Shown piece by piece: positions 108 through 14,988 of a DNA stretch of 14,988 bases. The stretch spans positions 1-14,988 of the forward strand of contig JBGSTX010000374.1 in the NCBI GenBank assembly GCA_041736305.1, read 5' to 3'. Source of the stretch: Oligoflexus sp. (GTDB lineage Bacteria; Bdellovibrionota_B; Oligoflexia; Oligoflexales; Oligoflexaceae). The position numbers and the translations under genes are program-made. Every line of letters begins with the position of its first letter. The stretch's first letter is position 1. A model generated the notes under the pieces. The model ran no database searches. It was not told where the DNA came from and saw only the letters and a program-made list of their open reading frames with translations.

Positions 108-1538
108 TTAAGCTAGAGCATTGAACAGCTGCTTTGCAAAACCGGATTGGTCTTCGAATACGATCGCGTTAGTTTTGCTCAGTTGTGGCCTATTATCTGT
201 CGAAGTGTCAATATGTCTTAAGCCATAGACCAGTGCCATCGCCGCATCACAGTGCCCTAAGACTTCCGACCGCTGAAAGTCCGACCTTGATTCGGTGAGG
301 AGTCCTCCTTCGAGCGTTTGTATGAGCATTTTGCACTGGGGATGTATCAACACCCTATTTTGGAAAATCTGATTTCTCAGGAACGTTAAGGTCGAATGAA
401 ACTCGGTTTTCGTTGGAGTCGTTATAGGGTATTCGTGCTCCGCGACGAAATCCACTTTCGTTTGACCTGCTGTATCGATAAATCGATTCACATTCTCCTC
501 TTCGATCTCTTTAAATCGTTTTACGATCACAGAGCTCGGCGTCCACGGCGGGAGGAATACCTCATTCCACACATGAATAAGGCCCGTATCATGGTCGAAA
601 GCCATCGAATAGCCCGCATAGTGATCTTTTACGCCTCCAAGATCTCCAGAAAAGATCCAATTGGCAAACTCCGGAAGCTTTGCAAAAGCCTGGACGTGTC
701 GCTCGGCGTCAAACGTAGGGCATATAGCGAGCCCCGGAGGCACTATCCACTCGCAGTAAAACTCTCGCTTCACATTTTCGGATTCGCGCCCGCCCACTTC
801 GAAAAATAGACGCTCCTTCTCTTCTTCATCTATATCGCTTAGCTCGTCTATCGTCTTTTTATGATAGAAACCGTTATTCTGTATCTTCGCCTTCTGCAGG
901 AGCTGATAACAAAAGTGAAGTTTCCCATCCCTCGAGGGAGTCGAGATAATGATGATCTTGATTTTCTTTTGCCTAGCCGTCGCTGGAATAATGACCGATC
1001 TATAGATGTACTCGAGCTTCGCAACAAAGCCAGCTTCATCGATAACGATGATCGAGACATCATTACCCCGAAGGCCATCGGGATTTTTATCGAGACCTAC
1101 GAGCTCAATGATTGAGCCTCGTTTAAAGGTGAAGATCTTTTTCGAAGGTGACCACTTCGGCCTCAAATCTTCGGGACAGTCCTCGATTATCTTATTAAAG
1201 GTCGGAATAATAAATCTTTCGAGATCAGTCTTAAACGCAGTGCCAAACTTTATAGTCTGCTTAAACCTAATGGCCTGCTCGATGCAGTAAACCACTGCCG
1301 AATAGCTCTTTCCGCCTCTTCGCGTCCAGTCACCATAGACGAGATGAATCTCGGGCCTAACGATACCCTCGTATAGCTCTCGCTGCTCAGGTTTTAATTT
1401 CCACTTGAGCCTCCCAAGGAGCCAAGCTTCCCGGACTTTCTTCGCCCGCTCACGGGCCTTCCGGATCTTTTCCCGCTCCTCCCTTACGTGTCTCTGCTGT
1501 TCCTCCCGACTCGGATACGTCAAAGCTAGAGAGCTCAT
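108..1538 (-). CDS. terL: Phage terminase large subunit
   Basis: 476 aa. Walker A-like TRRGGKS, Walker B IIVIDEAG preceded by LRG, coupling motif ISTP, nuclease acidic motifs SGDLG and HCDAAMAL. Confidence 0.92.
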   Translation of the reverse strand: MSSLALTYPSREEQQRHVREEREKIRKARERAKKVREAWLLGRLKWKLKPEQRELYEGIVRPEIHLVYGDWTRRGGKSYSAVVYCIEQAIRFKQTIKFGTAFKTDLERFIIPTFNKIIEDCPEDLRPKWSPSKKIFTFKRGSIIELVGLDKNPDGLRGNDVSIIVIDEAGFVAKLEYIYRSVIIPATARQKKIKIIIISTPSRDGKLHFCYQLLQKAKIQNNGFYHKKTIDELSDIDEEEKERLFFEVGGRESENVKREFYCEWIVPPGLAICPTFDAERHVQAFAKLPEFANWIFSGDLGGVKDHYAGYSMAFDHDTGLIHVWNEVFLPPWTPSSVIVKRFKEIEEENVNRFIDTAGQTKVDFVAEHEYPITTPTKTEFHSTLTFLRNQIFQNRVLIHPQCKMLIQTLEGGLLTESRSDFQRSEVLGHCDAAMALVYGLRHIDTSTDNRPQLSKTNAIVFEDQSGFAKQLFNALA

Positions 1539-3723: not shown

Positions 3724-3951
3724 TTAACACCAGACGATCCGCTTTTTTTCGAGCTCCAAAAAAAACGAGTACTCGAGGATTGACGACACTACCCCCGAGT
3801 ATCCGACACCGCTTGGCGATACCAGAATCAGCTCTGGGCCCGCACGATACGGCGTTGAAAACCGCACCCTCAAAAGCGAGTCCGTTTCTGATCGCTCCAT
3901 TTTTACTGGCCAGGGAAGATGGGATGCCAAATTACTAAGGTCTAGCGCCAT
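3724..3951 (-). CDS. Phage hypothetical protein
   Basis: 75 aa; ATG 1 bp after the upstream stop, with GAGGGG RBS. Confidence 0.55.
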   Translation of the reverse strand: MALDLSNLASHLPWPVKMERSETDSLLRVRFSTPYRAGPELILVSPSGVGYSGVVSSILEYSFFLELEKKRIVWC

Positions 3952-4872: not shown

Positions 4873-6012
4873 TTAAATCGGGAACCAGTCCATTGGCGGT
4901 AATGGTAATTCCGCTTCTTTTGATTTCTCTTCGTGAGCTGGCTCGCAATTTAGAGCGTCAAGAAAGGTCTTTTGAAATCTGTCCCAGATCTGACTCCAAA
5001 AACCATCGTTACAATTGACGAGATTGTCGTACCTTTGCGCTCTCATGTATTTATCTGCCCAAGTCACAAAAGCTTTTCCCATCCTTGGGCCGCCTCCCGC
5101 CTCGGCGAATTCTTTTAGCCAAGCAAGCCCATCGTTATACGATACGGTCATATTGACTTCTTTAGGGTATCGCTCGAATATTCGAGCTAGTGGCATGCGC
5201 TCACCGATCGGATTATTGCCCCATTCATCATCTTTGAATGATGAATGTAAAACACCCGTTATAGATATGGACCTTTTGGGCTCCGAGCTACTGACAACGT
5301 CAGTAGCTTGCCCACTCATAACTCCTTCCAAGCTACTGACGTTGTCAGTAGATCCTTTTGACGAGCTATTGAAGCTGTCAGTAGCTTTTTCAGTGCTTTT
5401 TTCAAAGCTACTGACATCGTCAGTAGGTATCGTACAACCCTTGTCCTGCATGCCTTCGGAGGATATGACGTGCTCTGCATTGCCGTCCATATGGCCATCT
5501 TTTATGCACTCAGAGGCTTGTCTCGGTACTTCTTGAAGACCTCGATGCTTCGATAGCTCTGCTACCAGCTTTGGATGGAGGTAGCGTAATGTTTTTGGGC
5601 CCTTAGCATTGTAAGAGAGAAGATCGAGATCGCGGAGAGTCGCAAGGCTATAGGATAGGTTCTGAAGGTTCTTACTACTTGGATTCTTGTCCAACAAAAC
5701 ACATATATCTGTCTTTTTGGCGTCAAAAACATCTCGAGCATTTGAAAAGTCTCCTCTCCTTTCGAGATTCGCCAGAAACATATAAAAAAAGCCCGCTGCC
5801 CAGCCCTGGAGCTGGTTTTCAATCACAATGCTCACGCCAAACTTCAGCAAATCTGAAGTGCGCACCCAAAACTTGTTATCGGGAGGCTGAGTCTTTTCTT
5901 CTTTGCGTGGCGGAGAACCCTTGCGGCCCTTACGACTGGGGACTTTCTTTTGAGAAGCAGATCGTTCCGAAACAGAATACAGCTTGCGTTTAGTATCGAC
6001 CATGATACACAC
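4873..6012 (-). CDS. Phage replication initiator (lambda O / replisome organizer-like)
   Basis: HTH-like N-terminal domain (DICVLLDK...NLSYSLATLRDLDLLSY), low-complexity linker encoded by the iterons, C-terminal IFERYPK...AW motif. The start may be ATG 6003. Confidence 0.7.
   Translation of the reverse strand: MCIMVDTKRKLYSVSERSASQKKVPSRKGRKGSPPRKEEKTQPPDNKFWVRTSDLLKFGVSIVIENQLQGWAAGFFYMFLANLERRGDFSNARDVFDAKKTDICVLLDKNPSSKNLQNLSYSLATLRDLDLLSYNAKGPKTLRYLHPKLVAELSKHRGLQEVPRQASECIKDGHMDGNAEHVISSEGMQDKGCTIPTDDVSSFEKSTEKATDSFNSSSKGSTDNVSSLEGVMSGQATDVVSSSEPKRSISITGVLHSSFKDDEWGNNPIGERMPLARIFERYPKEVNMTVSYNDGLAWLKEFAEAGGGPRMGKAFVTWADKYMRAQRYDNLVNCNDGFWSQIWDRFQKTFLDALNCEPAHEEKSKEAELPLPPMDWFPI
5286..5428. 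repeat. Four 23-bp palindromic iterons (putative replication origin)
   Basis: Consensus AGCTACTGAC-N3-GTCAGTAGCT at 5286-5308 (perfect), 5331-5353, 5364-5386 and 5406-5428. Confidence 0.85.
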
Positions 6013-6058
6013 TAACCTTACGTTGTTATTGTTTTTGAAAGGGCCTCAAAGCCCGACC

Positions 6059-6093
6059 AAAACCAGCTCTCGCCAAAAGAGCTGGTTTTTTTT
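6059..6093 (+). terminator. Intrinsic terminator, possibly bidirectional
   Basis: AAAACCAGCTCT-CGCCAAA-AGAGCTGGTTTT stem; T8 tail on +, T4 on -. Confidence 0.75.
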
Positions 6094-6308
6094 CGCCTTC
6101 AGTCGGTCATCCCGAATCCACAGCATTCCCTCTTTGTTTTTCTGTACATTTTTCAGGCATATAGTCGCTTTGTGTGCAGCAAAGCCAGGCTGGACGTGTT
6201 TTCCGTGGGTTTCGGTGATCATAAAACCCCACATATATTGTATCCCGCCGATATCCCAAGATATTTCCGGGTATCGCGCATAGACAATAATCAGGTGTTA
6301 TTTGATCA

Positions 6309-6327
6309 TGCCGGAGGGGGGATTTGA
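6309..6327 (-). other. tRNA-Leu-like 3' fragment, candidate attachment site
   Basis: Minus strand TCAAAT-CCCCC-CTCCGGC-A = T-loop, 5-nt T-stem strand, 7-nt acceptor strand and discriminator A. Sits at the phage/host boundary; no 5' half of a tRNA upstream. Confidence 0.6.
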
Positions 6328-6540
6328 GATTCTAAACTGAGATGCTTATATTACGTGCAGAGCCGATTATTTCATATACAACAGCACTACCACTTCCGCT
6401 GTTACTGTATAACTTCAATGCCGCAGCAATATTTTTGTTGTGTGGGGGATACGCTTTTCGATATTTCATTCCGCTCTGATGAGAAATAAAGCACTTCTTG
6501 ATACATTCGGCTCTAACCGCAGTGAAGAGATAAAAATCGC

Positions 6541-7836
6541 ATGGACGAGAGCTCAAAAAATCTACAGAAAACAGCCAGGCCCGTAGCCGAAGATCTTGGA
6601 AATCTACCTGACCAAAGGTTGATGCAGGCGCAGAAGGCCATGCGCTGGCTCGAAGAAGCCGGTTTCCAGGCGCGGCTAGCCGGAGGTTGCGTCCGCGACC
6701 GCCTCCTTGGTATTAGGCCGAAGGATTATGACATCGCATCTGACGCCCTGCCTGAGCAAGTAAGCTTAATTTTTAAGCAGAAAGGCGCTAAGGTCGTGCC
6801 CACAGGCATCGACCATGGCACGGTCACCGTCGTCCTAGGCGGGCAGGGGATAGAAATTACTAGCCTTCGAAAGGATGTGAGTACTGATGGCAGGCGCGCC
6901 CTCGTCTCCTTCGGATCGTCGTTCGAGGAAGATGCCGAGCGCCGAGATTTTACTATGAATGCACTTTATGAAGACCTCGCCGGGCAGGTCTACGACTACT
7001 TCGATGGTCAGGCCGATATGAAGCGGGGAGTCCTCCGCTTCGTAGGCAGCCCCGAGCAGCGCATCCGTGAAGATTACCTGCGCATTCTAAGGCTCTTTCG
7101 CTTCTGGGCCCGCTTCGGCTTTAGGCCCGAAACTCAAACTCTAGACGCCGTCAAACGCGAAGTAGGGGGCCTCAAGCAAATTAGCCAGGAGCGCTGCACC
7201 TCAGAAATCCTTGCACTTCTGAGCGAAGAAGATATCGACGAGGTACTGCAGGCGATGCAGCAGACTCAGGTCTTCACAGAGACTCTCGAGTTTCGCGAGC
7301 CCATAGACCTCGGGAAACTGAGTGCCCACAAAAGCATCAGAAAAACCGAGCGCGCCCTCACCCGGCTCGCCGCATTGCTCCTCGATAAGCGCCAAGCAGC
7401 CGAAATCCCCGGCTACCTGGAGCAACTTCGGCTTTCTAAAAAACAAATGCTACAGATCCTGAGCCTTATTACGCCGCCAGCAATAGAACGAAGCTCAGAG
7501 CATGACGTGGCGAAGCAGATGGATATCCTCGACCAGCTCGAGAAAGTCTGGGGTCTCGACGGCATTCTTCTCGCCGCGCTACCCGCATTGAAGCTGATGC
7601 ACCCGGGCAGAGCCTCCCTGTGGGAGTATCTGCAGCGCACAGAGGAGCGCTCGGGCCCCCGCCGCCGCAGCCCCTTACCCATTAATGGTCAGGACCTCAT
7701 AGAGCGCCTGGGCATTAGTTCGGGACCAAAGCTAGGAACGATCGTTCTCTATCTGAAGGAATCTTTTCGGCGAGGTGAGTGGAGCGAGCCTGAAGAAGGC
7801 TTCAAACTCGCGAACAAATTCTTACAAAGCCCCTGA
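6541..7836 (+). CDS. cca: CCA tRNA nucleotidyltransferase (class II)
   Basis: GGCVRD...DYDIA, RRDFTMNAL, EDYLRILR, ISQER motifs. Flexible loop present; poly(A) polymerase G[RK]RF signature absent (PTGIDHGT); no HD domain evident. Confidence 0.9.
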   Translation: MDESSKNLQKTARPVAEDLGNLPDQRLMQAQKAMRWLEEAGFQARLAGGCVRDRLLGIRPKDYDIASDALPEQVSLIFKQKGAKVVPTGIDHGTVTVVLGGQGIEITSLRKDVSTDGRRALVSFGSSFEEDAERRDFTMNALYEDLAGQVYDYFDGQADMKRGVLRFVGSPEQRIREDYLRILRLFRFWARFGFRPETQTLDAVKREVGGLKQISQERCTSEILALLSEEDIDEVLQAMQQTQVFTETLEFREPIDLGKLSAHKSIRKTERALTRLAALLLDKRQAAEIPGYLEQLRLSKKQMLQILSLITPPAIERSSEHDVAKQMDILDQLEKVWGLDGILLAALPALKLMHPGRASLWEYLQRTEERSGPRRRSPLPINGQDLIERLGISSGPKLGTIVLYLKESFRRGEWSEPEEGFKLANKFLQSP

Positions 7837-8568
7837 TGCGATCGCCTTACGGCAGCGGGCATTGTAGCGTGTGCTAAGCGCTCTCGACTCCAGTTTCTTG
7901 GACTGCTTCAACTCGTGGACGAGCTCGGTCGTGCGATTCAGTAACTTGACCCGCTTGTACTCAATGTCGCCCTCTTCACGCGCAATGTAGTTGTACATAA
8001 CGCCGCAAGCGGACGCGATGTCGGTCGTCAGAAAAGCAGGAAGTTCTTGGAAACTCTTGACCAGACGACTCTTATCAAATTCTGCGGTACGACCCGAAAA
8101 GTCGAAATACGCCGAACCTGCCTTCGTTTCTGTCGTGTACTGCCCGGCAGGCAAGTTCTTGTCGATCCAGGCGGAAAGACGTAGAGGACTCTTTTCAAAG
8201 GCAGGATCCAATACCCAAGGCTCGTTGTTATCCACCTTCAAAAGTGGCGCGACGTGGTAGCTCCAAGCCGTCCCAGGCACAGGACGCAATGAACCATAAA
8301 TGTACTGGGCAGAACTGGGAATTTTCTCAGAAGCCAACTCCATCGACATGTAAAGTTCACGAGCGTAGCAGCCATCTTTAATGTAATTGAAAGGCAGGTA
8401 GTCGATATCATAGACGATATCGAAGGCCTTCCCCGCTTGGCTTGCAGATACGTAGGCACTGATATCACTTGGACTCTCCTCGGAGCTACCGCCGCCACAA
8501 GCAGCGATCGTACTCAGAAGAAAAGGAGCTAAGAATCTCGCCTCGGAAAATCGTTTGAGGGTAAGCAT
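7822..8568 (-). CDS. Protein-glutamine glutaminase-like lipoprotein
   Basis: Lipobox IAAC24. Catalytic triad motifs DGC67YAR, WSYH105VAP and VLD121P, as in Chryseobacterium protein glutaminase. Confidence 0.8.
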   Translation of the reverse strand: MLTLKRFSEARFLAPFLLSTIAACGGGSSEESPSDISAYVSASQAGKAFDIVYDIDYLPFNYIKDGCYARELYMSMELASEKIPSSAQYIYGSLRPVPGTAWSYHVAPLLKVDNNEPWVLDPAFEKSPLRLSAWIDKNLPAGQYTTETKAGSAYFDFSGRTAEFDKSRLVKSFQELPAFLTTDIASACGVMYNYIAREEGDIEYKRVKLLNRTTELVHELKQSKKLESRALSTRYNARCRKAIASGAL

Positions 8569-8845: not shown

Positions 8846-9766
8846 ATGAGCATGCAGGCAACGGCTGAATCTATGATGGAAGTCCAAATCGCTGAGAAAG
8901 AAAAGGATAAAGACCGTATCAATCCCACCGGAGCGGTTCCCTTCGTCCTGGTACATATCGCCGGCCTTGCAGCCTTTTTCTTCGAATTCAATATGACGAT
9001 GTTTTGGCTTTGCCTCTTCAGCTATTACATTCGTATGGTTGGCGTTACTGCGGGCTATCACCGCTACTTTTCGCATAGAACTTTCAAGACTTCTCGCGCC
9101 TTCCAATTTATCTTAGCTTTCCTGGCCCAGACTTCTGCACAAAAAGGAGCTCTTTGGTGGGCAGCCCATCATCGTCATCATCATAAGTATTCCGATACAG
9201 AAGCTGATCTGCATTCACCAAAACATAAAGGTTTTTGGTGGGCACAATTTGGTTGGGTGTTGAGCAAAAGCTCCAACGGGACTGATATGCGCTACATTCA
9301 AGATTTCGCTAAGTACCCCGAGCTGCGCTGGTTGAATAAATATTTTCTTGTTCCACCAACTCTCTATGCAGTTGCCATCTGGTTGATCTGGGGAACACCC
9401 GGTCTTTTCTGGGGCTTTTTCTTCTCAACTGTTTTGCTGTACCATGGAACTTTCTTTATTAATTCGCTGACGCACGTCTTTGGTAAAGTTCGTTATAAGT
9501 CGGGCGACGACAGCAAAAACAGCATGATTCTTGCACTGATTACCTGCGGTGAAGGTTGGCACAACAACCACCACCATTACCAAGCTACAGCTAATCAAGG
9601 TTGGTTCTGGTGGGAAATTGACCTTTCGTACTATGTGATCAAAGCACTTTCTTGGGTTGGAATAACTTGGGATCTGCGCTTGCCACCGCCTCACATAAAA
9701 GCCCGTACTATTGCCGCAGAAATGCAGCAGCAGAAGCAAGCGACTCAGAAGAGCAGTGCCGCCTGA
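8846..9766 (+). CDS. Membrane fatty acid (acyl-CoA, delta-9-type) desaturase
   Basis: His boxes HRYFSH, HHRHHH and GEGWHNNHH, plus INSLTH and TM segments. GAGGAGG RBS. Confidence 0.92.
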   Translation: MSMQATAESMMEVQIAEKEKDKDRINPTGAVPFVLVHIAGLAAFFFEFNMTMFWLCLFSYYIRMVGVTAGYHRYFSHRTFKTSRAFQFILAFLAQTSAQKGALWWAAHHRHHHKYSDTEADLHSPKHKGFWWAQFGWVLSKSSNGTDMRYIQDFAKYPELRWLNKYFLVPPTLYAVAIWLIWGTPGLFWGFFFSTVLLYHGTFFINSLTHVFGKVRYKSGDDSKNSMILALITCGEGWHNNHHHYQATANQGWFWWEIDLSYYVIKALSWVGITWDLRLPPPHIKARTIAAEMQQQKQATQKSSAA

Positions 9767-9831: not shown

Positions 9832-9968
9832 GCCCGAGGTCGGCGGCTTAGGTTTATCGCAGCTTAAGCTTTCATGCTATCTTAGCAAATATTACTAAGT
9901 AACCAGCAGCAATGACATATTTAAACTAAATTTTGTGGGTATCCGTTGCGTCGCGAGGAGTAGATTTA

Positions 9969-12464
9969 ATGTTAGAATTTTTCGCCAATCTATTCTCCAG
10001 CAAGAATTTTATGCCACATGGTCACTGCTACCTATGGCGACCTGAAATACTCTGGCTTCATGTTATTTCGGACGCAATCATTGCTCTCGCCTATGCCTCT
10101 ATACCATTTGCTTTAGGCTATTTGGTCCGCAAGAGAAAAGATTTGGCCTTCAACTGGGTCTTCGTCATGTTTGGGCTCTTTATTTTGGCCTGTGGAGCGA
10201 CGCATCTGATCAGTATTTGGACCGTCTGGGAACCGATCTATCGCCTCGACGGTCTTATCAAAGCTGTTACAGCGATGGCTTCCATAGGTACCGCCGTAGC
10301 TTTATGGCCTTTAATACCCAAGGTCATCGTGATGCCCAGCTCTTCGCAGTTGGAAGAAGCAAATCGAGGTCTGCATTTGGAGATAGTCGAACGTAAACGG
10401 GCCGAAAAGCAGCTAGAAGCTCGGAATATTGCTCTGCGCGAGGCCGAGCGCCTGAAAAGCGATTTCATCGCTAATGTTTCCCATGAACTCCGCACACCTC
10501 TCACCTTGATCCTCTCGCCCCTAGAGAGTTTACTCAACCAGCATAGATTGAAGGGCGGACCTTCCCCGGCATGGAAAGAGTCTGACATTGAACTCCTCGG
10601 ACTGGCACACAACAACGCTATCAGGCTCTTGCAGATGATCAATGGGCTACTCGATTTTTCCAAGCTGGAAGCCAAGAAAACCGAAGTCAAGCGCGAAGCT
10701 ATCGACTTTCCCAAGCTGGTGGCGCGGATCAATGCGGATTTTGCTCCCGTGATGGAGGCTAAAGATATTGCTCTTGAGGCGGAGCTCGACCTTGAGGACC
10801 CGGTGCGTGAACTAGATGCCTATCTCTTCGAAAGAATACTTTTCAATCTGCTTTCCAATGCCGCAAAGTTCACCCCCGCCGGGGGTAAGGTACACGTTTC
10901 TCTCAGTCAAGCTGGAGATGAACGAATCATCATTAAGGTCAAAGACAGCGGAGTCGGAATCTCGGCCGACGATCGGCCGCATCTCTTTGAAAAGTTTCGC
11001 CAGCTCGAGGGTTCTTCAACACGGCGTTTCGAAGGTACAGGCCTCGGCCTGGCTCTGGTCAAGGAGTTCAGTGAACTACTCGGCGGCAGGGTCACAGTCG
11101 AAAGCCAGCCTGGTGAGGGGAGCACTTTCATTGTGAATCTCCTAGCTCCCGCAGCGGCGAGAGAAGCTTCCTCAGAGGTCATCTTAGGCCCTTCACGCTC
11201 ACAGATACTCTATCCCGTACCCGAGCATGCGTCTCAAGGGTTGAGCCACGATGCAGATTCATCCAAAGAGAATCTCCCACTAGTCCTCATTGCAGAAGAC
11301 AATGCTGATCTAGCTAGCTATATCGCAGCCACCTTGAGTGGCATCTGCCGCACGGCTATCGCCGCTGATGGAGTTGAAGCTCTCCAGTTGGCTAAGCATC
11401 TGCAGCCGCAACTGGTGATGAGCGATGTGATGATGCCCAACATGGACGGCTACAGTCTGTGTGTGGCCCTTAAGCAGAACGAAGCGACTCTTAGCACTCC
11501 CGTATTGATGCTGACGGCTTTAACGCATAGGGAAGCTTTGTTGAGGGGCTGGGAGGTAGGCGCCGACGAATATCTCTTCAAACCTTTCCACCCAACGGAG
11601 CTCCTGACCCGGGTTAAATCGCTGCTGAAAAGCATTGAGATTCGCGAAAAGGCCGAGGCGAGGCGCGAAGAGCTAGCTGCAGTCAACGCGCAAAAGGCTG
11701 CAGTAGAGGCCCATGTTGAGAAGCTGAGCGCCTCTGAGGCCGAACTCAAGCGTCTCAACCGCATCAAAGACGAGTTCCTGGCTACGGTATCGCACGAGCT
11801 CCGCACACCGATGGTAGCGATCCTCGGCTGGTCTGAATTGTTAGCCGCTAATGAGATAGAGCCTGAAGAGTTTAACGACGCCTTCGAAACGATCTATAGG
11901 AACGCTAAGTCTCAGGTTCGCATCATAGACGATCTCCTCGACATTTCACGCATGATGAATGGGCATTTCGTGATCGAATTGGAACCTGTGCAGATGAAGG
12001 AAGTGATCCGTGGCGCTATAGCAACCGTCCAAAACGCGGCAGCAGTGAAGAACATATCCCTCGTCCTCCAATTGGAGGACGTCGGTCCCGTCGCCGGCGA
12101 TGCCGATCGCCTGAAGCAGCTGATTTGGAACCTGCTCTCGAATGCCATCAAGTTCAGTCCCACGGGCAAGCAGGTTGAAGTTTTCTTGCGTGAAGACGCC
12201 GGGCAGGTGCACTTCATAGTAAAAGACCACGGCAAGGGTATCACCTCCGAGTTTTTACCCCATGTGTTCGAAAGATTTCTGCAAGAAGACCAGTCGTCCA
12301 CGCGACGTCAGGGCGGGCTCGGCCTTGGGCTTTCGATCGTAAAACATATCACCGAGCTTCACGGCGGTACCATCGAAGCTATCAGCGCCGGACGGGATCA
12401 AGGTTCAACTTTCATCTTGCACCTGCCTCTGCGGAAGCTGAGAAGCATCGAATCTAGGGCATAA
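9969..12464 (+). CDS. Hybrid sensor kinase: ETR1-like ethylene-binding domain - HisKA/HATPase - REC - HisKA/HATPase
   Basis: SDAIIALAYASIP and FILACGATHL in three TM helices; two SHELRTP H-boxes, each with N/G boxes; receiver AEDN...SDVMMP...KPF. GAGGAG RBS before ATG 9969 (the ORF track starts at 9933). Confidence 0.9.
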   Translation: MLEFFANLFSSKNFMPHGHCYLWRPEILWLHVISDAIIALAYASIPFALGYLVRKRKDLAFNWVFVMFGLFILACGATHLISIWTVWEPIYRLDGLIKAVTAMASIGTAVALWPLIPKVIVMPSSSQLEEANRGLHLEIVERKRAEKQLEARNIALREAERLKSDFIANVSHELRTPLTLILSPLESLLNQHRLKGGPSPAWKESDIELLGLAHNNAIRLLQMINGLLDFSKLEAKKTEVKREAIDFPKLVARINADFAPVMEAKDIALEAELDLEDPVRELDAYLFERILFNLLSNAAKFTPAGGKVHVSLSQAGDERIIIKVKDSGVGISADDRPHLFEKFRQLEGSSTRRFEGTGLGLALVKEFSELLGGRVTVESQPGEGSTFIVNLLAPAAAREASSEVILGPSRSQILYPVPEHASQGLSHDADSSKENLPLVLIAEDNADLASYIAATLSGICRTAIAADGVEALQLAKHLQPQLVMSDVMMPNMDGYSLCVALKQNEATLSTPVLMLTALTHREALLRGWEVGADEYLFKPFHPTELLTRVKSLLKSIEIREKAEARREELAAVNAQKAAVEAHVEKLSASEAELKRLNRIKDEFLATVSHELRTPMVAILGWSELLAANEIEPEEFNDAFETIYRNAKSQVRIIDDLLDISRMMNGHFVIELEPVQMKEVIRGAIATVQNAAAVKNISLVLQLEDVGPVAGDADRLKQLIWNLLSNAIKFSPTGKQVEVFLREDAGQVHFIVKDHGKGITSEFLPHVFERFLQEDQSSTRRQGGLGLGLSIVKHITELHGGTIEAISAGRDQGSTFILHLPLRKLRSIESRA

Positions 12465-13146
12465 GCCAGGCAAACATATAACTTGCCCCAGGATATCGAC
12501 TAAAGGGATAGTTCCCCTTATATTCGAACTCGGCTGGCTTCGCTGTGAGTAGGCATTTGAAATGGTCTCCTCGCAGGAGTTTTTCGAGCTTTCGGAAGCG
12601 CTTAACTATCGCCCTGTTGGTAACCTTTGCATAGCCACCTCGATAGCCCCTCGCCTTAAGATATGGGTACTGATGAAGTATCATCATCAAAAGGACGGGA
12701 GAGTTCTTCACCTTCCTTGCAACAGCAGCCAGACCACAATGGTAAATCTCCCCTCTTTGCCTGGGGACCCATTCACTAGGCAACTTAAGCTGGTCTAGAT
12801 AGCTTCCGATCGTTGCCAGTCCTTCGCTAAGCTCGCCATTAGGTTCATAGAGATCAAAGTGATCTTCGATAGTAACAACTCCGAGCAGCTGATTTTGGCG
12901 ATCCAGCGTCACAGCGCCTAGACCAGATTCAGCAACTTTTTCCACCAAGCCCCTGAAAAACGGCTGAATTTCGCCGAGGTTCATGCCGAGCTGTCGACAG
13001 AGAGGTTCACGTTCGCAAAACTCCTGGCTGAGGAGCGAAGCTGCAGCTTCAACATGCGGGGGGCCCAGTTGCTCAATGCGAAACGAGGGATGCCGCAAGC
13101 GAAAAAAAGCCTTAATAATGCCTGCCATGGCTCTTGTGTAGTTCAT
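12454..13146 (-). CDS. GNAT-fold protein, arylalkylamine N-acetyltransferase-like
   Basis: AASLLSQEFCEREPL resembles F..DEPL of insect AANAT/Dat; LLGVVTIED strand; GY...AKVTN motif. The CoA-binding loop is non-canonical. Confidence 0.55.
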   Translation of the reverse strand: MNYTRAMAGIIKAFFRLRHPSFRIEQLGPPHVEAAASLLSQEFCEREPLCRQLGMNLGEIQPFFRGLVEKVAESGLGAVTLDRQNQLLGVVTIEDHFDLYEPNGELSEGLATIGSYLDQLKLPSEWVPRQRGEIYHCGLAAVARKVKNSPVLLMMILHQYPYLKARGYRGGYAKVTNRAIVKRFRKLEKLLRGDHFKCLLTAKPAEFEYKGNYPFSRYPGASYMFAWLMP

Positions 13147-13161
13147 AGATCAGGCTTCTCC

Positions 13162-14343
13162 CTACAATGCTGCAATCTGCCGGGGTAGACGATAGAGCTG
13201 AACCATACGCCGCTCACTAAGCTTGTCAGGGGTCAGACGTGCGACGCAGTCCCTGATATAACTAGCCCATACGCTTCGTGGCTGAAACGCGACATTCATA
13301 CCGTTAGCCAGGTTCATCATCTGTTTGGCCCTCTTCAGACGCCACTCATCGATGGCCGCTTCATCCGCAGGCGAGGAAACTTCCATTCTTTCAGCTAGCC
13401 GCGCCACCAGCCAATGGGCATCTTCGAGAGCCAAAGACGCGCCCTGCCCCATATTCGGCGGCATTCCATGGGCGGCGTCGCCAATGAGAGTTACGACGCC
13501 TTTCGAATAGCTCTTGAGACCCCTGACAACCCCGAAATTGCTGCGATGCACGCTGCCTTCTACAATGAAATCGAGGAGGGTGAGAATATCGGGGTGAAAA
13601 TTCTGGTAGAGCTTTTTGAGTCTGCTGTGCAGATCTTCTGGCAAAGGAGCCCTATTGGGCGTGTACTCGCTGGCCCTCTCTATAGCGCTCCAGTAAGCTG
13701 TCTTCCCATCGAGCGAGGTCAGAACAAAACGTGATCCTTGACCCCAGATCTCTAGGGTTCTGCCCACAAAATTTGCGGCAAGAGGATGCCGGCTCTGGCC
13801 GAGATAGGTGCGGAGACCCTGATAGTGAACCTCGCTCTCTGGAAAAAGCTGGGTTCGGCTCAGAGAGCCGATGCCATCGGCTGCAATAACGCGCTTGGCA
13901 AGGATTTGCTGCTGATTCTTGAAGCGCACTATCGCGTGATCAAACCTGAGCTCGAAAGCCTCCAGTTCTTGGCCGAAATGAATTTTTCCACCCTGCGCTT
14001 GAAACCTCTTCATCAAAATCTGATAAAGTTCACGGCGACGAATCGCCAGAATCGGCTGTCCGAGCCGACTGACCAAGCCCTTTGCTTTCAGCTGCATCAG
14101 AGGCTTGAGGTCGCGGGCAGCGAAAATCATACTCTCCTGGGCCTTGCCGGCGCTCTGGACTTCACTCAGGCAGCCGAGGCGCTCTATCAAGGTGAGTCCG
14201 TTCGGAGCCAGCCAGAGCAGGTTATCCTCACAGGCTAAATTCGCGCCCTTTTCGTAGATGGGAAAGTCCAGGCCACGAGTCTGAGCAAAGAGCCCGGCGC
14301 CTAGACCAGCGATGCCTCCTCCTATGATAACAGCGTCCTTCAT
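13162..14343 (-). CDS. FAD-dependent monooxygenase (class A aromatic hydroxylase type)
   Basis: GGGIAG, AADGIGS and LIGDAAHGMPPNMGQGA fingerprints; single Rossmann motif. Confidence 0.9.
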   Translation of the reverse strand: MKDAVIIGGGIAGLGAGLFAQTRGLDFPIYEKGANLACEDNLLWLAPNGLTLIERLGCLSEVQSAGKAQESMIFAARDLKPLMQLKAKGLVSRLGQPILAIRRRELYQILMKRFQAQGGKIHFGQELEAFELRFDHAIVRFKNQQQILAKRVIAADGIGSLSRTQLFPESEVHYQGLRTYLGQSRHPLAANFVGRTLEIWGQGSRFVLTSLDGKTAYWSAIERASEYTPNRAPLPEDLHSRLKKLYQNFHPDILTLLDFIVEGSVHRSNFGVVRGLKSYSKGVVTLIGDAAHGMPPNMGQGASLALEDAHWLVARLAERMEVSSPADEAAIDEWRLKRAKQMMNLANGMNVAFQPRSVWASYIRDCVARLTPDKLSERRMVQLYRLPRQIAAL

Positions 14344-14988
14344 ACTGCAGTCTCCGACGCAATGAGATCAATCAACTGGTCGATCATGCTGAGATGGGTT
14401 CGGAATGACAGAATCGCAATGCGAATGATAAAGACATCGTCAATCTGCGTCGAACTTAGAAAAGTCAGCCCGTGCGCATTGAGCCTCTGCAGAAGCTGGC
14501 GAGTCAGGGTGTTTGCACTTTCTTTTGAAGCATCGCTACCCACCTGAAAACCCAAGATAGAAAGATCCGAGGCTGCGAACATGCGGATAGTACCCAGTTT
14601 CTCCAAACGAGCGCGGCAGTATCGAGCCAGCTCAAGTTTCTCCTGCAGTGCGCTCTTAAAGAGGGCTTCGCCATGTAGTTTCAAACTTAACCAGATGCGC
14701 AGCGAGCGAAAAGGGCGAGTTAACTCAAGAGAATAGTCCATAGGGGACTTCTGCCCAGATCCACTGCGATCCTGGAGATAGCTGGCTGTTCCGGCTAAAG
14801 CTTCCCGTAGGAGTTCCCCATTTTTAAAGAGAACTGCACCGCAGCCATAAGGCAGGAACATACCCTTGTGCGGATCGAGCACCAGCGAATCCGCTTTCTC
14901 GATCCCTCTTAAGATTTCCTTGCCTTCGTCGGTCAGTACAAAAAATCCACCACAAGCCGCATCCACATGAAACCAGAGTCCATACGAT
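14340..14988 (-). CDS. Group II PLP-dependent decarboxylase, aromatic-L-amino-acid decarboxylase-like (5' end outside the window)
   Basis: Frame open to the window edge: WFHVDAACGG, DSLVLDPHK (PLP lysine), ASYL loop, ELTRPFRSLRIW. Confidence 0.88.
   Translation of the reverse strand, partial: SYGLWFHVDAACGGFFVLTDEGKEILRGIEKADSLVLDPHKGMFLPYGCGAVLFKNGELLREALAGTASYLQDRSGSGQKSPMDYSLELTRPFRSLRIWLSLKLHGEALFKSALQEKLELARYCRARLEKLGTIRMFAASDLSILGFQVGSDASKESANTLTRQLLQRLNAHGLTFLSSTQIDDVFIIRIAILSFRTHLSMIDQLIDLIASETAV

Follow-up and report, generated by a model that had tools for sequence, protein, structure and literature searches.

A candidate bacterial operon for an N-acylated, ring-hydroxylated arylalkylamine in an Oligoflexus genome

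The stretch of DNA analyzed here, referred to as the window, is an entire contig of 14,988 nucleotides (G000:C354:1-14988) from an Oligoflexus sp. assembly of 5.02 Mb in 392 contigs that is 92.7% complete with 2.7% contamination. Its minus strand carries three tightly packed open reading frames that encode part of a group II pyridoxal phosphate (PLP)-dependent decarboxylase, a flavin monooxygenase of class A and a GNAT-like protein. Because the window is the whole contig and the decarboxylase frame runs off its end, this gene has been truncated by the assembly, and only the C-terminal ~45% of the decarboxylase is present. Another contig of the same genome, C220, contains a gene for a pterin-dependent aromatic amino acid hydroxylase (AAAH) together with the N-terminal half of a decarboxylase, with the start of the latter overlapped by 14 nt. 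From this arrangement we infer an operon with the order AAAH, decarboxylase, monooxygenase and GNAT-like gene that is split over C220 and C354. The genes and the junctions between them are as follows.

Window 14340-14987, minus strand: C-terminal part of the decarboxylase, 215 residues, PF00282, with the frame open to the window end
Window 14340-14343, minus strand: ATGA, the decarboxylase stop overlapping the monooxygenase start, read from the sequence
Window 13162-14343, minus strand: class A FAD-dependent aromatic monooxygenase (single-component), 393 residues, PF01494
Window 13147-13161, minus strand: 15-nt spacer ggagaagcctgatct with GGAG, from the monooxygenase stop to the GNAT-like start, read from the sequence
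Window 12454-13146, minus strand: GNAT-fold protein of the insect-type AANAT / Ebony C-domain kind, 230 residues, assigned by fold and profile
C220 3632-4663, plus strand: AAAH, 343-residue frame with a likely start at 3797, PF00351
C220 4650-5393, plus strand: N-terminal 248 residues of the decarboxylase, PF00282

Direct reading of the sequence confirmed the three co-oriented genes, the ATGA overlap at 14340-14343 and the 15-bp gap that a preliminary description of the window had reported, and the enzyme classes named there also held, with the decarboxylase matching PF00282, the flavin monooxygenase matching PF01494 and the third protein being AANAT-like. The window fragment of the decarboxylase scores 91.6 bits against PF00282 (cut-off 27; 5.4e-26) over profile positions 227-372 of 375, and a genome-wide search with PF00282 places the C220 half at 51.5 bits over positions 25-207. 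Both pieces align to a single 493-residue relative, P0008, in which the C220 piece covers residues 1-248 (69% identity) and the window piece residues 268-480 (72% identity). As these are consecutive matches to one protein, the two pieces appear to be halves of one gene, with ~19 residues (249-267 of P0008) unassembled between them. Promoter and terminator scans of the sequence upstream of the AAAH gene, and of that near the GNAT gene's end, gave counts within shuffle expectation and are thus uninformative. Farther upstream on C220 lie genes for a divergent Hpt-receiver protein and a TonB-dependent receptor. Eukaryotic contamination as the source of these genes was considered and rejected in view of the bacterial-style gene overlaps and the recurrence of the cassette in many bacterial assemblies, and also because a complete Sorangium chromosome carries the first two genes, those for the AAAH and the decarboxylase.

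The GNAT-like protein is rare, with only seven relatives recovered among 5.8 billion proteins in a word-indexed search, and their alignment (A1) was needed for finding related loci, given that a locus search with the single GNAT-like sequence found none. Loci were gathered by searching genomes, metagenomes and kin genomes with A1 and with an alignment of the AAAH family (A2), and duplicates were removed by blastn. This left 13 distinct loci with readable context; three further loci (L011, L032 and L034) are cut by contig ends and stand outside the 13. The AAAH and the GNAT-like gene are present in all 13, the monooxygenase in 10 and the decarboxylase in eight, with all four genes together in five. 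The loci divide into three arrangements.

AAAH, decarboxylase, monooxygenase, GNAT-like: five loci (own genome, L006, L007, L024, L025), with L006 and L007 93% identical in DNA
AAAH, monooxygenase, GNAT-like: five loci (L008, L033, L010, L026, L031), with L033 a 92.6% relative of L008
AAAH, decarboxylase, GNAT-like: three loci (L009, L027, L044)

Conservation of the decarboxylase, monooxygenase and GNAT-like genes as a trio, which had been proposed as a check on the preliminary description, is thus seen in part: five of the 13 loci have all three, but five are without the decarboxylase and three without the monooxygenase. Flanking genes differ between loci, except in the near-identical pair L006/L007, and because the arrangement recurs in 13 distinct loci with unrelated flanks it is more than chance. 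Comparison of the flanks revealed no methyltransferase, halogenase, ring-cleavage dioxygenase, aminotransferase, transporter or regulator conserved with the cassette. The suggestion that a methyltransferase or halogenase might lie upstream is not borne out, and the upstream gene is the AAAH. L044, one of the loci with no intact monooxygenase gene, still has 49 residues of the monooxygenase N-terminus (positions 9320-9469; 58% identity, 7e-12) as a remnant between the decarboxylase and the GNAT gene, indicating that at least this three-gene form arose by deletion. The AAAH of L009 (788-1471) lacks ~70 residues through an in-frame deletion, the His-x4-His iron motif among them, either because the copy is decaying or through an assembly error. 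The apparent split of the GNAT gene in L027 coincides with 10 consecutive N and was not counted as a frameshift.

When G000 is counted, 11 of the 61 kin genomes are matched by A1, eight of them strongly, and within the genus a match is found in only one of 13 other genomes. These counts indicate that the cassette is accessory and patchily distributed. Titled records that carry it are metagenome-assembled genomes, labeled Oligoflexaceae, Oligoflexales, Pseudobdellovibrionaceae or Bdellovibrio sp., with others labeled 'uncultured proteobacterium', 'Proteobacteria bacterium' or simply 'bacterium'. The complete chromosome of the cultured myxobacterium Sorangium sp. So ce1128 (L043, 6971-9284) contains a Phe-type AAAH and decarboxylase pair followed by an rve-family transposase, with no monooxygenase or GNAT gene nearby. 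Many further relatives of both enzymes are found on equally long contigs, which hints that the AAAH-decarboxylase pair may be more widely distributed than the complete cassette.

The AAAH, which is 288 residues long when counted from its likely start, matches PF00351 at 93.5 bits (cut-off 22.7; E = 1.7e-26). Its iron site comprises HDIFGH and FEFGL, in which the His-x4-His pair and the Glu align to H138, H143 and E184 of the Chromobacterium violaceum phenylalanine hydroxylase chain 1ltu, and these residues are invariant in all 48 clade members in A2. An insertion of ~43 residues separates the His motif from the Glu (query residues 188-246 versus 161-176 of 1ltu). Taken as a whole, the protein is best matched by bacterial phenylalanine hydroxylases (NF008877, 1.4e-36; 1ltu, 1.2e-21), with its score of 125.9 bits lying below the cut-off of 247 for the Phenylalanine 4-monooxygenase equivalog NF008877. 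Its C-terminal 104 residues return eleven TPH1/TPH2 matches (5.4e-9 to 2.8e-6) ahead of the first PAH (2e-5). Phe250 (numbered in the 343-residue frame) aligns to Trp180 of 1ltu, a column in which human TPH1 chains also have Phe ('cyFftvEFGL'), and Phe occupies this position in 10 of 10 cassette AAAHs and in 46 of the 48 members of the wider clade. At the position equivalent to L101 of the C. violaceum enzyme (CviPAH), the 48 proteins have Tyr (30), Leu (13, including the AAAH encoded on C220), Phe (4) or a gap (1). The available text of one report describes L101Y and W180F substitutions in CviPAH that were modeled on human tryptophan hydroxylase and increased tryptophan hydroxylation (PMC4029321), and that of another describes a like effect for W192F in the Cupriavidus enzyme, CtAAAH (PMC5856393). 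It is mainly the TPH-type pocket residue that leads us to favor tryptophan as the probable substrate, an argument drawn from two positions. In a maximum-likelihood tree of 12 AAAHs, eight of the nine inner branches were unresolved. The same genome has a second AAAH (C280, ~5636-6436, minus strand) in a 607-residue open frame, and this paralogue has Trp at the CviPAH W180 position.

The catalytic and cofactor-binding motifs of the three proteins encoded in the window lie at the following positions.

14865-14867, minus strand: codon of the PLP-binding Lys of the decarboxylase (DPHK), aligned to the 'sphK'/'dahK' Lys of solved aromatic decarboxylases
14778-14780, minus strand: codon of the catalytic-loop Tyr of the decarboxylase (TASYLQ), 29 residues past the PLP Lys
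14305-14322, minus strand: GGGIAG dinucleotide-binding motif of the monooxygenase, residues 8-13, with G8, G10 and G13 invariant in nine orthologues
13420-13482, minus strand: GDAAHGMPPNMGQGASLALED motif of the monooxygenase, residues 288-308, invariant across nine orthologues
13000-13008, minus strand: E47-P48-L49 of the GNAT-like protein, equivalent by alignment to the EPL in the insect DEPLN motif

Retention of the catalytic-loop Tyr (ASYL) had earlier been read as favoring true decarboxylation, and comparison with solved enzymes agrees. The same column holds Tyr in 4obu, 6eew (Tyr348 in chain numbering, 'npeYlknk'), 6eei and 7xin, and Phe ('eanFlk') in 6eeq, which its depositors named 4-hydroxyphenylacetaldehyde synthase; the Tyr at this position therefore argues for a genuine decarboxylase rather than an aldehyde-forming enzyme. 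The Tyr of a 'DY' before the FRSL segment was also considered as the catalytic residue and was dropped, since the alignments put the Tyr/Phe switch in the xxY/FLK segment. The full-length relative P0008 has 4obu as its top-ranked solved relative (3.5e-59), followed by the DOPA decarboxylase 7xin (7.7e-46), and the solved relatives as ranked run from 4obu through DOPA, tyrosine and tryptophan decarboxylases, an order that is no readout of substrate. For the window fragment, 4obu (85.8 bits) and 6eew are joint best at ~3e-23. We take 4obu to be the Ruminococcus gnavus tryptophan decarboxylase and 6eew to be, presumably, that of Catharanthus; the search output gives generic names.

The monooxygenase matches FAD_binding_3 (PF01494) at 92.7 bits (cut-off 22; 3.5e-26), and the GDAAHGMPPNMGQGASLALED motif is one that we take to be the class A 'GD' motif that contacts the FAD and its ribityl chain. 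Its best NCBIfam matches are PRK06753 (165 bits against a cut-off of 365) and HpxO (134.7 bits against 500), the latter being the best match with an enzyme label, and besides HpxO the 24 other NCBIfam matches listed, such as 3-hydroxybenzoate 6-monooxygenase, are likewise below their cut-offs. The nearest solved structures are tropone 2-monooxygenase (8rqh, 2.7e-21) and 6-hydroxynicotinate 3-monooxygenase (2.7e-20), with 3rp6 (named 'flavoprotein monooxygenase') and MHPC oxygenase as further relatives, and the nearest solved relatives all hydroxylate (hetero)aromatic rings that bear hydroxy or oxo substituents. A search of the ESM Atlas with the monooxygenase returned only clusters with the generic name 'FAD-dependent oxidoreductase'. 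Class A flavin monooxygenases normally need a ring that has been pre-activated by a hydroxyl or amino group, a requirement that would fit a second hydroxylation after the AAAH step. Prediction of a complex between the monooxygenase and the GNAT-like protein returned a score of 0.00 (mark, 0.32).

Family library scans with the GNAT-like protein gave no match in Pfam and none in NCBIfam. The earlier description of the protein as an AANAT-like GNAT finds no echo in these libraries, but it is upheld by the fold and by a family profile. An AlphaFold2 model built from A1 has a pLDDT of 92.0 and a pTM of 0.87, and a Foldseek search of the PDB with this model gave 324 matches at E <= 0.001, of which, among the matches listed, almost all are GNATs. 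The first is the C-terminal condensation domain of Ebony (6dym; 1.2e-11, TM score 0.73), and next come the PBCV-1 polyamine acetyltransferase 3qb8, the Drosophila dopamine N-acetyltransferase and the Aedes aaNATs. TM scores are ~0.64-0.73 for the Ebony, viral and insect chains, compared with ~0.45-0.55 for ordinary GNATs, at sequence identities of 12-16%. A HMMER scan of 1.84 billion cluster representatives with A1 gave 393 matches at E <= 0.001, 17 of them at <= 1e-30, and a profile of 81 of the 393 (A3) was built. Of these 81 members, 28 match PF00583 at E <= 0.01. A3 matches the insect, viral and Ebony chains (14 sequences) over their full length at 1.7e-27 to 2.1e-12, with the next GNAT at 1.3e-6. 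As A3 contains distant members retrieved by A1, this link to insect-type AANATs is transitive, but it amounts to real sequence evidence of a relationship. E47-P48-L49 aligns to the EPL of 'fadEPLnk' in the Aedes aaNAT2 chain 4fd5; together with C50 these residues are invariant in the seven close relatives in A1, and at the EPL site of the 81 members of A3 the Glu is present in 75 and the Pro in 79. In the accessible part of a report on insect enzymes, the Glu of DEPLN is a general base that also helps in amine binding (PMC6070697). Taken together, these features suggest that the GNAT-like protein is probably an amine N-acyltransferase.

Natural fusions connect this family to the other cassette enzymes. 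Ten long family members (P0137, P0145, P0146, P0150, P0166, P0194, P0182, P0217, P0227 and P0162), were scanned with Pfam, which identified three FAD_binding_3-GNAT, three Pyridoxal_deC-GNAT, two EAL and one alpha/beta hydrolase fusions. In the tenth, P0227, luciferase-like, adenylation and carrier domains are followed by a GNAT-like domain at the end, an Ebony-like layout among metagenomic proteins. At the cassette locus L025 the monooxygenase and GNAT genes form one 647-residue frame without a stop, in a record that holds ambiguous bases. The fusions provide independent support for the GNAT-like domain working with the decarboxylase and the monooxygenase. Two further loci, L028 and L029, have remote homologues of the GNAT-like protein (6.6e-15 and 1.7e-12 to A1) beside distant group II decarboxylases that are 26-27% identical to that of the window, which makes the decarboxylase-GNAT pairing older than the cassette.

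Given these assignments, we think it on balance probable that the operon makes an N-acylated, ring-hydroxylated arylalkylamine, most likely from tryptophan. In this pathway the AAAH would act on an aromatic amino acid and hydroxylate its unactivated ring, the likeliest case being tryptophan to 5-hydroxytryptophan, and the decarboxylase would then give the amine, serotonin. The flavin monooxygenase could add a second hydroxyl beside the first to give a dihydroxytryptamine, a step placed after that of the AAAH because the flavin enzyme needs an electron-rich, phenol-type ring. Finally, the GNAT-like enzyme would N-acylate the side-chain amine, probably from acyl-CoA and with Glu47 as the general base, and the expected product would be an N-acyl (di)hydroxy-arylalkylamine. 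Of the sequence of decarboxylation, hydroxylation and acylation that the preliminary description read from the gene order, the general route to a ring-hydroxylated, N-acylated arylalkylamine stands and agrees with the fusions, but the flavin enzyme as the sole hydroxylase does not. That enzyme had been cast in place of a pterin hydroxylase, and the AAAH found directly upstream on C220, and in 13 of 13 readable loci, contradicts this. Because the AAAH heads the cassette in every one of them, the flavin enzyme is more likely to be a second hydroxylase.

Several observations weigh against this interpretation. The adjacency of C220 and C354 is deduced from the two sequence halves of the decarboxylase and is not a sequenced join. 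The NCBIfam equivalog cut-offs are missed by wide margins for both the monooxygenase and the AAAH. Phe at the W180 position is expected to give a bigger pocket, which is no proof of a preference for tryptophan, and at the L101-equivalent position the AAAH of the operon has Leu (VEGLAPPW), not Tyr. No match to Pterin_4a, the carbinolamine dehydratase family, was found across this 92.7%-complete genome, which is weak evidence. The glycines of motif A, the pyrophosphate loop, are missing from the GNAT-like protein, which has RKVKNS where many family members have R/Q-x-x-G-x-A/G; its close relatives are also without them, while distant members keep forms such as Q-G-A-G-I-A. The absence of these glycines makes the use of acyl-CoA uncertain. 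Lastly, the monooxygenase is absent from three of the 13 cassettes and the decarboxylase from five, and the decarboxylase-less genomes G044, G033 (both 96% complete) and G013 (72% complete) have only 25-31% identical decarboxylase paralogues elsewhere. Since there are cassettes with no decarboxylase in genomes with no close decarboxylase elsewhere, an amine may not be the obligatory acceptor.

The main rival applies the same four-enzyme logic to phenylalanine and tyrosine, with phenylalanine converted in turn to tyrosine by the AAAH, to tyramine by the decarboxylase, to dopamine by the flavin monooxygenase as a phenol ortho-hydroxylase and to N-acyl-dopamine by the GNAT-like enzyme, and it would make the operon a bacterial counterpart of the insect N-acetyldopamine route. 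We regard it as improbable but deserving of serious attention. The whole AAAH is closest to bacterial phenylalanine hydroxylases (NF008877, 1ltu) and keeps Leu at the L101-equivalent position, the DOPA decarboxylase 7xin (7.7e-46) is the second-best solved relative of the decarboxylase, and the Drosophila dopamine N-acetyltransferase is among the closest solved GNAT folds. Ortho-hydroxylation of a phenol is also classic class A flavin chemistry, which counts in its favor. On the other hand, 46 of the 48 clade members have Phe at the W180-equivalent position, in contrast to the Trp of the second AAAH in this genome, the C-terminal half of the AAAH is nearer to TPH than to PAH, and the best solved relatives of the decarboxylase (joint best for the window fragment) are structures that we take to be tryptophan decarboxylases. 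A more distant prospect, and one that we think quite unlikely, is that the AAAH and the flavin monooxygenase yield a (di)hydroxy aromatic amino acid and that the alpha-amine of this amino acid, not the decarboxylated amine, is acylated, or condensed with a thioester in the manner of Ebony, with the decarboxylase an optional, diversifying addition. This would account for the presence of the AAAH and GNAT-like genes in 13 of 13 loci against eight of 13 for the decarboxylase, which has no orthologue elsewhere in the genomes whose cassettes lack it. It also fits the top Foldseek match to a condensation domain, that of Ebony (6dym), the position of the GNAT-like domain behind adenylation and carrier domains in P0227, and the missing motif A glycines. 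However, the Pyridoxal_deC-GNAT fusions (three of the ten long members) and the pairs at L028 and L029 tie the family to amines, the cassette has neither a carrier protein nor an adenylating enzyme, and the Glu of EPL serves as an amine-binding general base in insect enzymes, according to the accessible part of PMC6070697.

The scheme first proposed for the window, in which tryptophan is decarboxylated to tryptamine, the flavin enzyme alone hydroxylates the ring to give serotonin and N-acetylation follows, now seems very improbable to us. It takes the gene order in the window (decarboxylase, monooxygenase, GNAT-like) at face value and has a precedent in the plant route, which passes through tryptamine according to the available portion of a 2022 review (PMC9048412). 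Nevertheless, all readable loci have a dedicated pterin-dependent hydroxylase as the first gene of the operon, some cassettes (L009, L027 and L044) do without the monooxygenase, and the general preference of class A flavin monooxygenases for an activated ring argues against a first hydroxylation by this enzyme. We give least credence of all to a catabolic or detoxifying cassette that inactivates environmental or host aromatic amino acids or amines. The relatives of the monooxygenase do include degradative enzymes, namely those for 6-hydroxynicotinate, MHPC and salicylate, and the accessible text of PMC6070697 describes the inactivation of insect amines by N-acetylation. However, a ring-cleavage dioxygenase, an aminotransferase, a transporter and a regulator are all missing from the set of genes conserved with the cassette, and a decarboxylase followed by an acyltransferase builds amides and does not feed central metabolism.

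Each of the four enzymes belongs to a known superfamily, and in combination they resemble the animal TPH-AADC-AANAT route. The animal serotonin/N-acetylserotonin pathway uses three of the same families in the same order, namely an AAAH with the TPH-type Phe, a decarboxylase with the catalytic Tyr and a GNAT like the amine N-acetyltransferases. In contrast to the animal pathway, here they are encoded in a single bacterial operon in which stop codons overlap start codons, the AAAH is without the eukaryotic regulatory and tetramerization domains, the GNAT is of the insect rather than the vertebrate type, there is an additional flavin monooxygenase and an O-methyltransferase is absent. With insect Dat/AANATA, the Aedes aaNATs, the C-terminal domain of Ebony and A654L of PBCV-1, the window protein has in common a like fold, a full-length profile match and the Glu-Pro-Leu, whereas it differs in having REPLC instead of DEPLN, in lacking the motif A glycines and in being bacterial and operon-encoded. 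The cassette AAAH and bacterial PhhA (C. violaceum PAH, 1ltu) are both monomeric-type AAAHs with the same His/His/Glu iron site, but the cassette enzyme has Phe for Trp180 and the insertion of ~43 residues, and its gene, unlike that in the phhABC operon, is linked to decarboxylase, monooxygenase and GNAT genes and not to those for a carbinolamine dehydratase and an aminotransferase. The substitutions engineered into CviPAH (L101Y/W180F) and CtAAAH (W192F) already occur in this natural clade, in which 46 of the 48 members have the Phe and 30 the Tyr, with the protein of the Oligoflexus cassette having the Phe only. The window decarboxylase fragment and 4obu have the catalytic Lys, the Tyr and an 'ELTRP' segment in common, and the Lys and Tyr align with those of plant aromatic amino acid decarboxylases; what differs from 4obu is that the gene is embedded in a hydroxylase operon. 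Similarly, the monooxygenase resembles class A hydroxylases such as HpxO, 6-hydroxynicotinate 3-monooxygenase and tropone 2-monooxygenase in its PF01494 architecture and in both the GxGxxG and the GD motif, but it has new partners, among them the GNAT-like domain, which is joined to FAD_binding_3 in natural fusions.

No description of such an operon was found in literature searches, which left most subscription journals and supplements outside their reach, in line with the earlier statement that no characterized operon of this composition was known. The available portion of the 2022 review states that a tryptophan hydroxylase gene was still to be described from bacteria and that genes for AAAH and those for aromatic amino acid decarboxylase (AAAD) seldom occur in one strain (PMC9048412), and the bacterial tryptophan hydroxylases that appear in the accessible part of a later publication are heme-dependent only (PMC13091554).

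Elsewhere in the window, the cassette is bordered by a gene (9933-12464, plus strand) for an 843-residue hybrid histidine kinase, whose N-terminal domain is like that of ethylene receptors (PF25487 ETR1_N, 3.9e-40) and which also contains two sets of HisKA/HATPase domains plus one receiver domain. The kinase gene is convergent with the GNAT-like gene, such that the 3' ends of the two coding regions overlap by 11 bp, and it is not kept beside the cassette in other loci. Beyond it are genes for a fatty acid desaturase (8846-9766, plus strand), a Gln_deamidase_2-like putative lipoprotein (7822-8568, minus strand) and a member of the CCA-adding / poly(A) polymerase family (6541-7836, plus strand), all of which are ordinary neighbors that nothing in the other loci connects with the cassette. 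At the far end of the contig, a 476-residue frame (108-1538, minus strand) matches the N-terminal domain of terminase large subunits (PF03237, 1.5e-7) and is followed, up to ~6000, by many short frames and a 379-residue frame without a family, and this end may be a prophage or phage remnant.

With a TPH-like pterin hydroxylase, an aromatic decarboxylase and an AANAT-like acyltransferase together in a candidate operon, the cassette bears directly on whether bacteria make serotonin-type indolamines with their own genes. We tentatively raise the possibility, which we hold with limited confidence, of a dedicated, mobile, animal-like monoamine pathway in Oligoflexia-type bacteria, the first two genes of which are also present in a cultured Sorangium. 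Such a pathway would combine a natural pterin-dependent tryptophan hydroxylase with a decarboxylase for 5-hydroxytryptophan and an amine N-acyltransferase of the insect type, and would include a flavin step leading to a redox-active dihydroxy-indolamine. The cassette may also supply natural tryptophan-hydroxylating AAAHs, which are now obtained by engineering, and it draws attention to a sizeable bacterial or metagenomic family (393 cluster representatives) that is related to the insect AANATs and Ebony. If the monoamine reading is true, bacterial genes for making serotonin and N-acylserotonin-type molecules would be genetically defined for the first time, the products might be signals to eukaryotic hosts or prey, or toxins acting on them, and the GNAT family of bacteria would be related to the insect AANATs and Ebony, possibly as a source or recipient by gene transfer.

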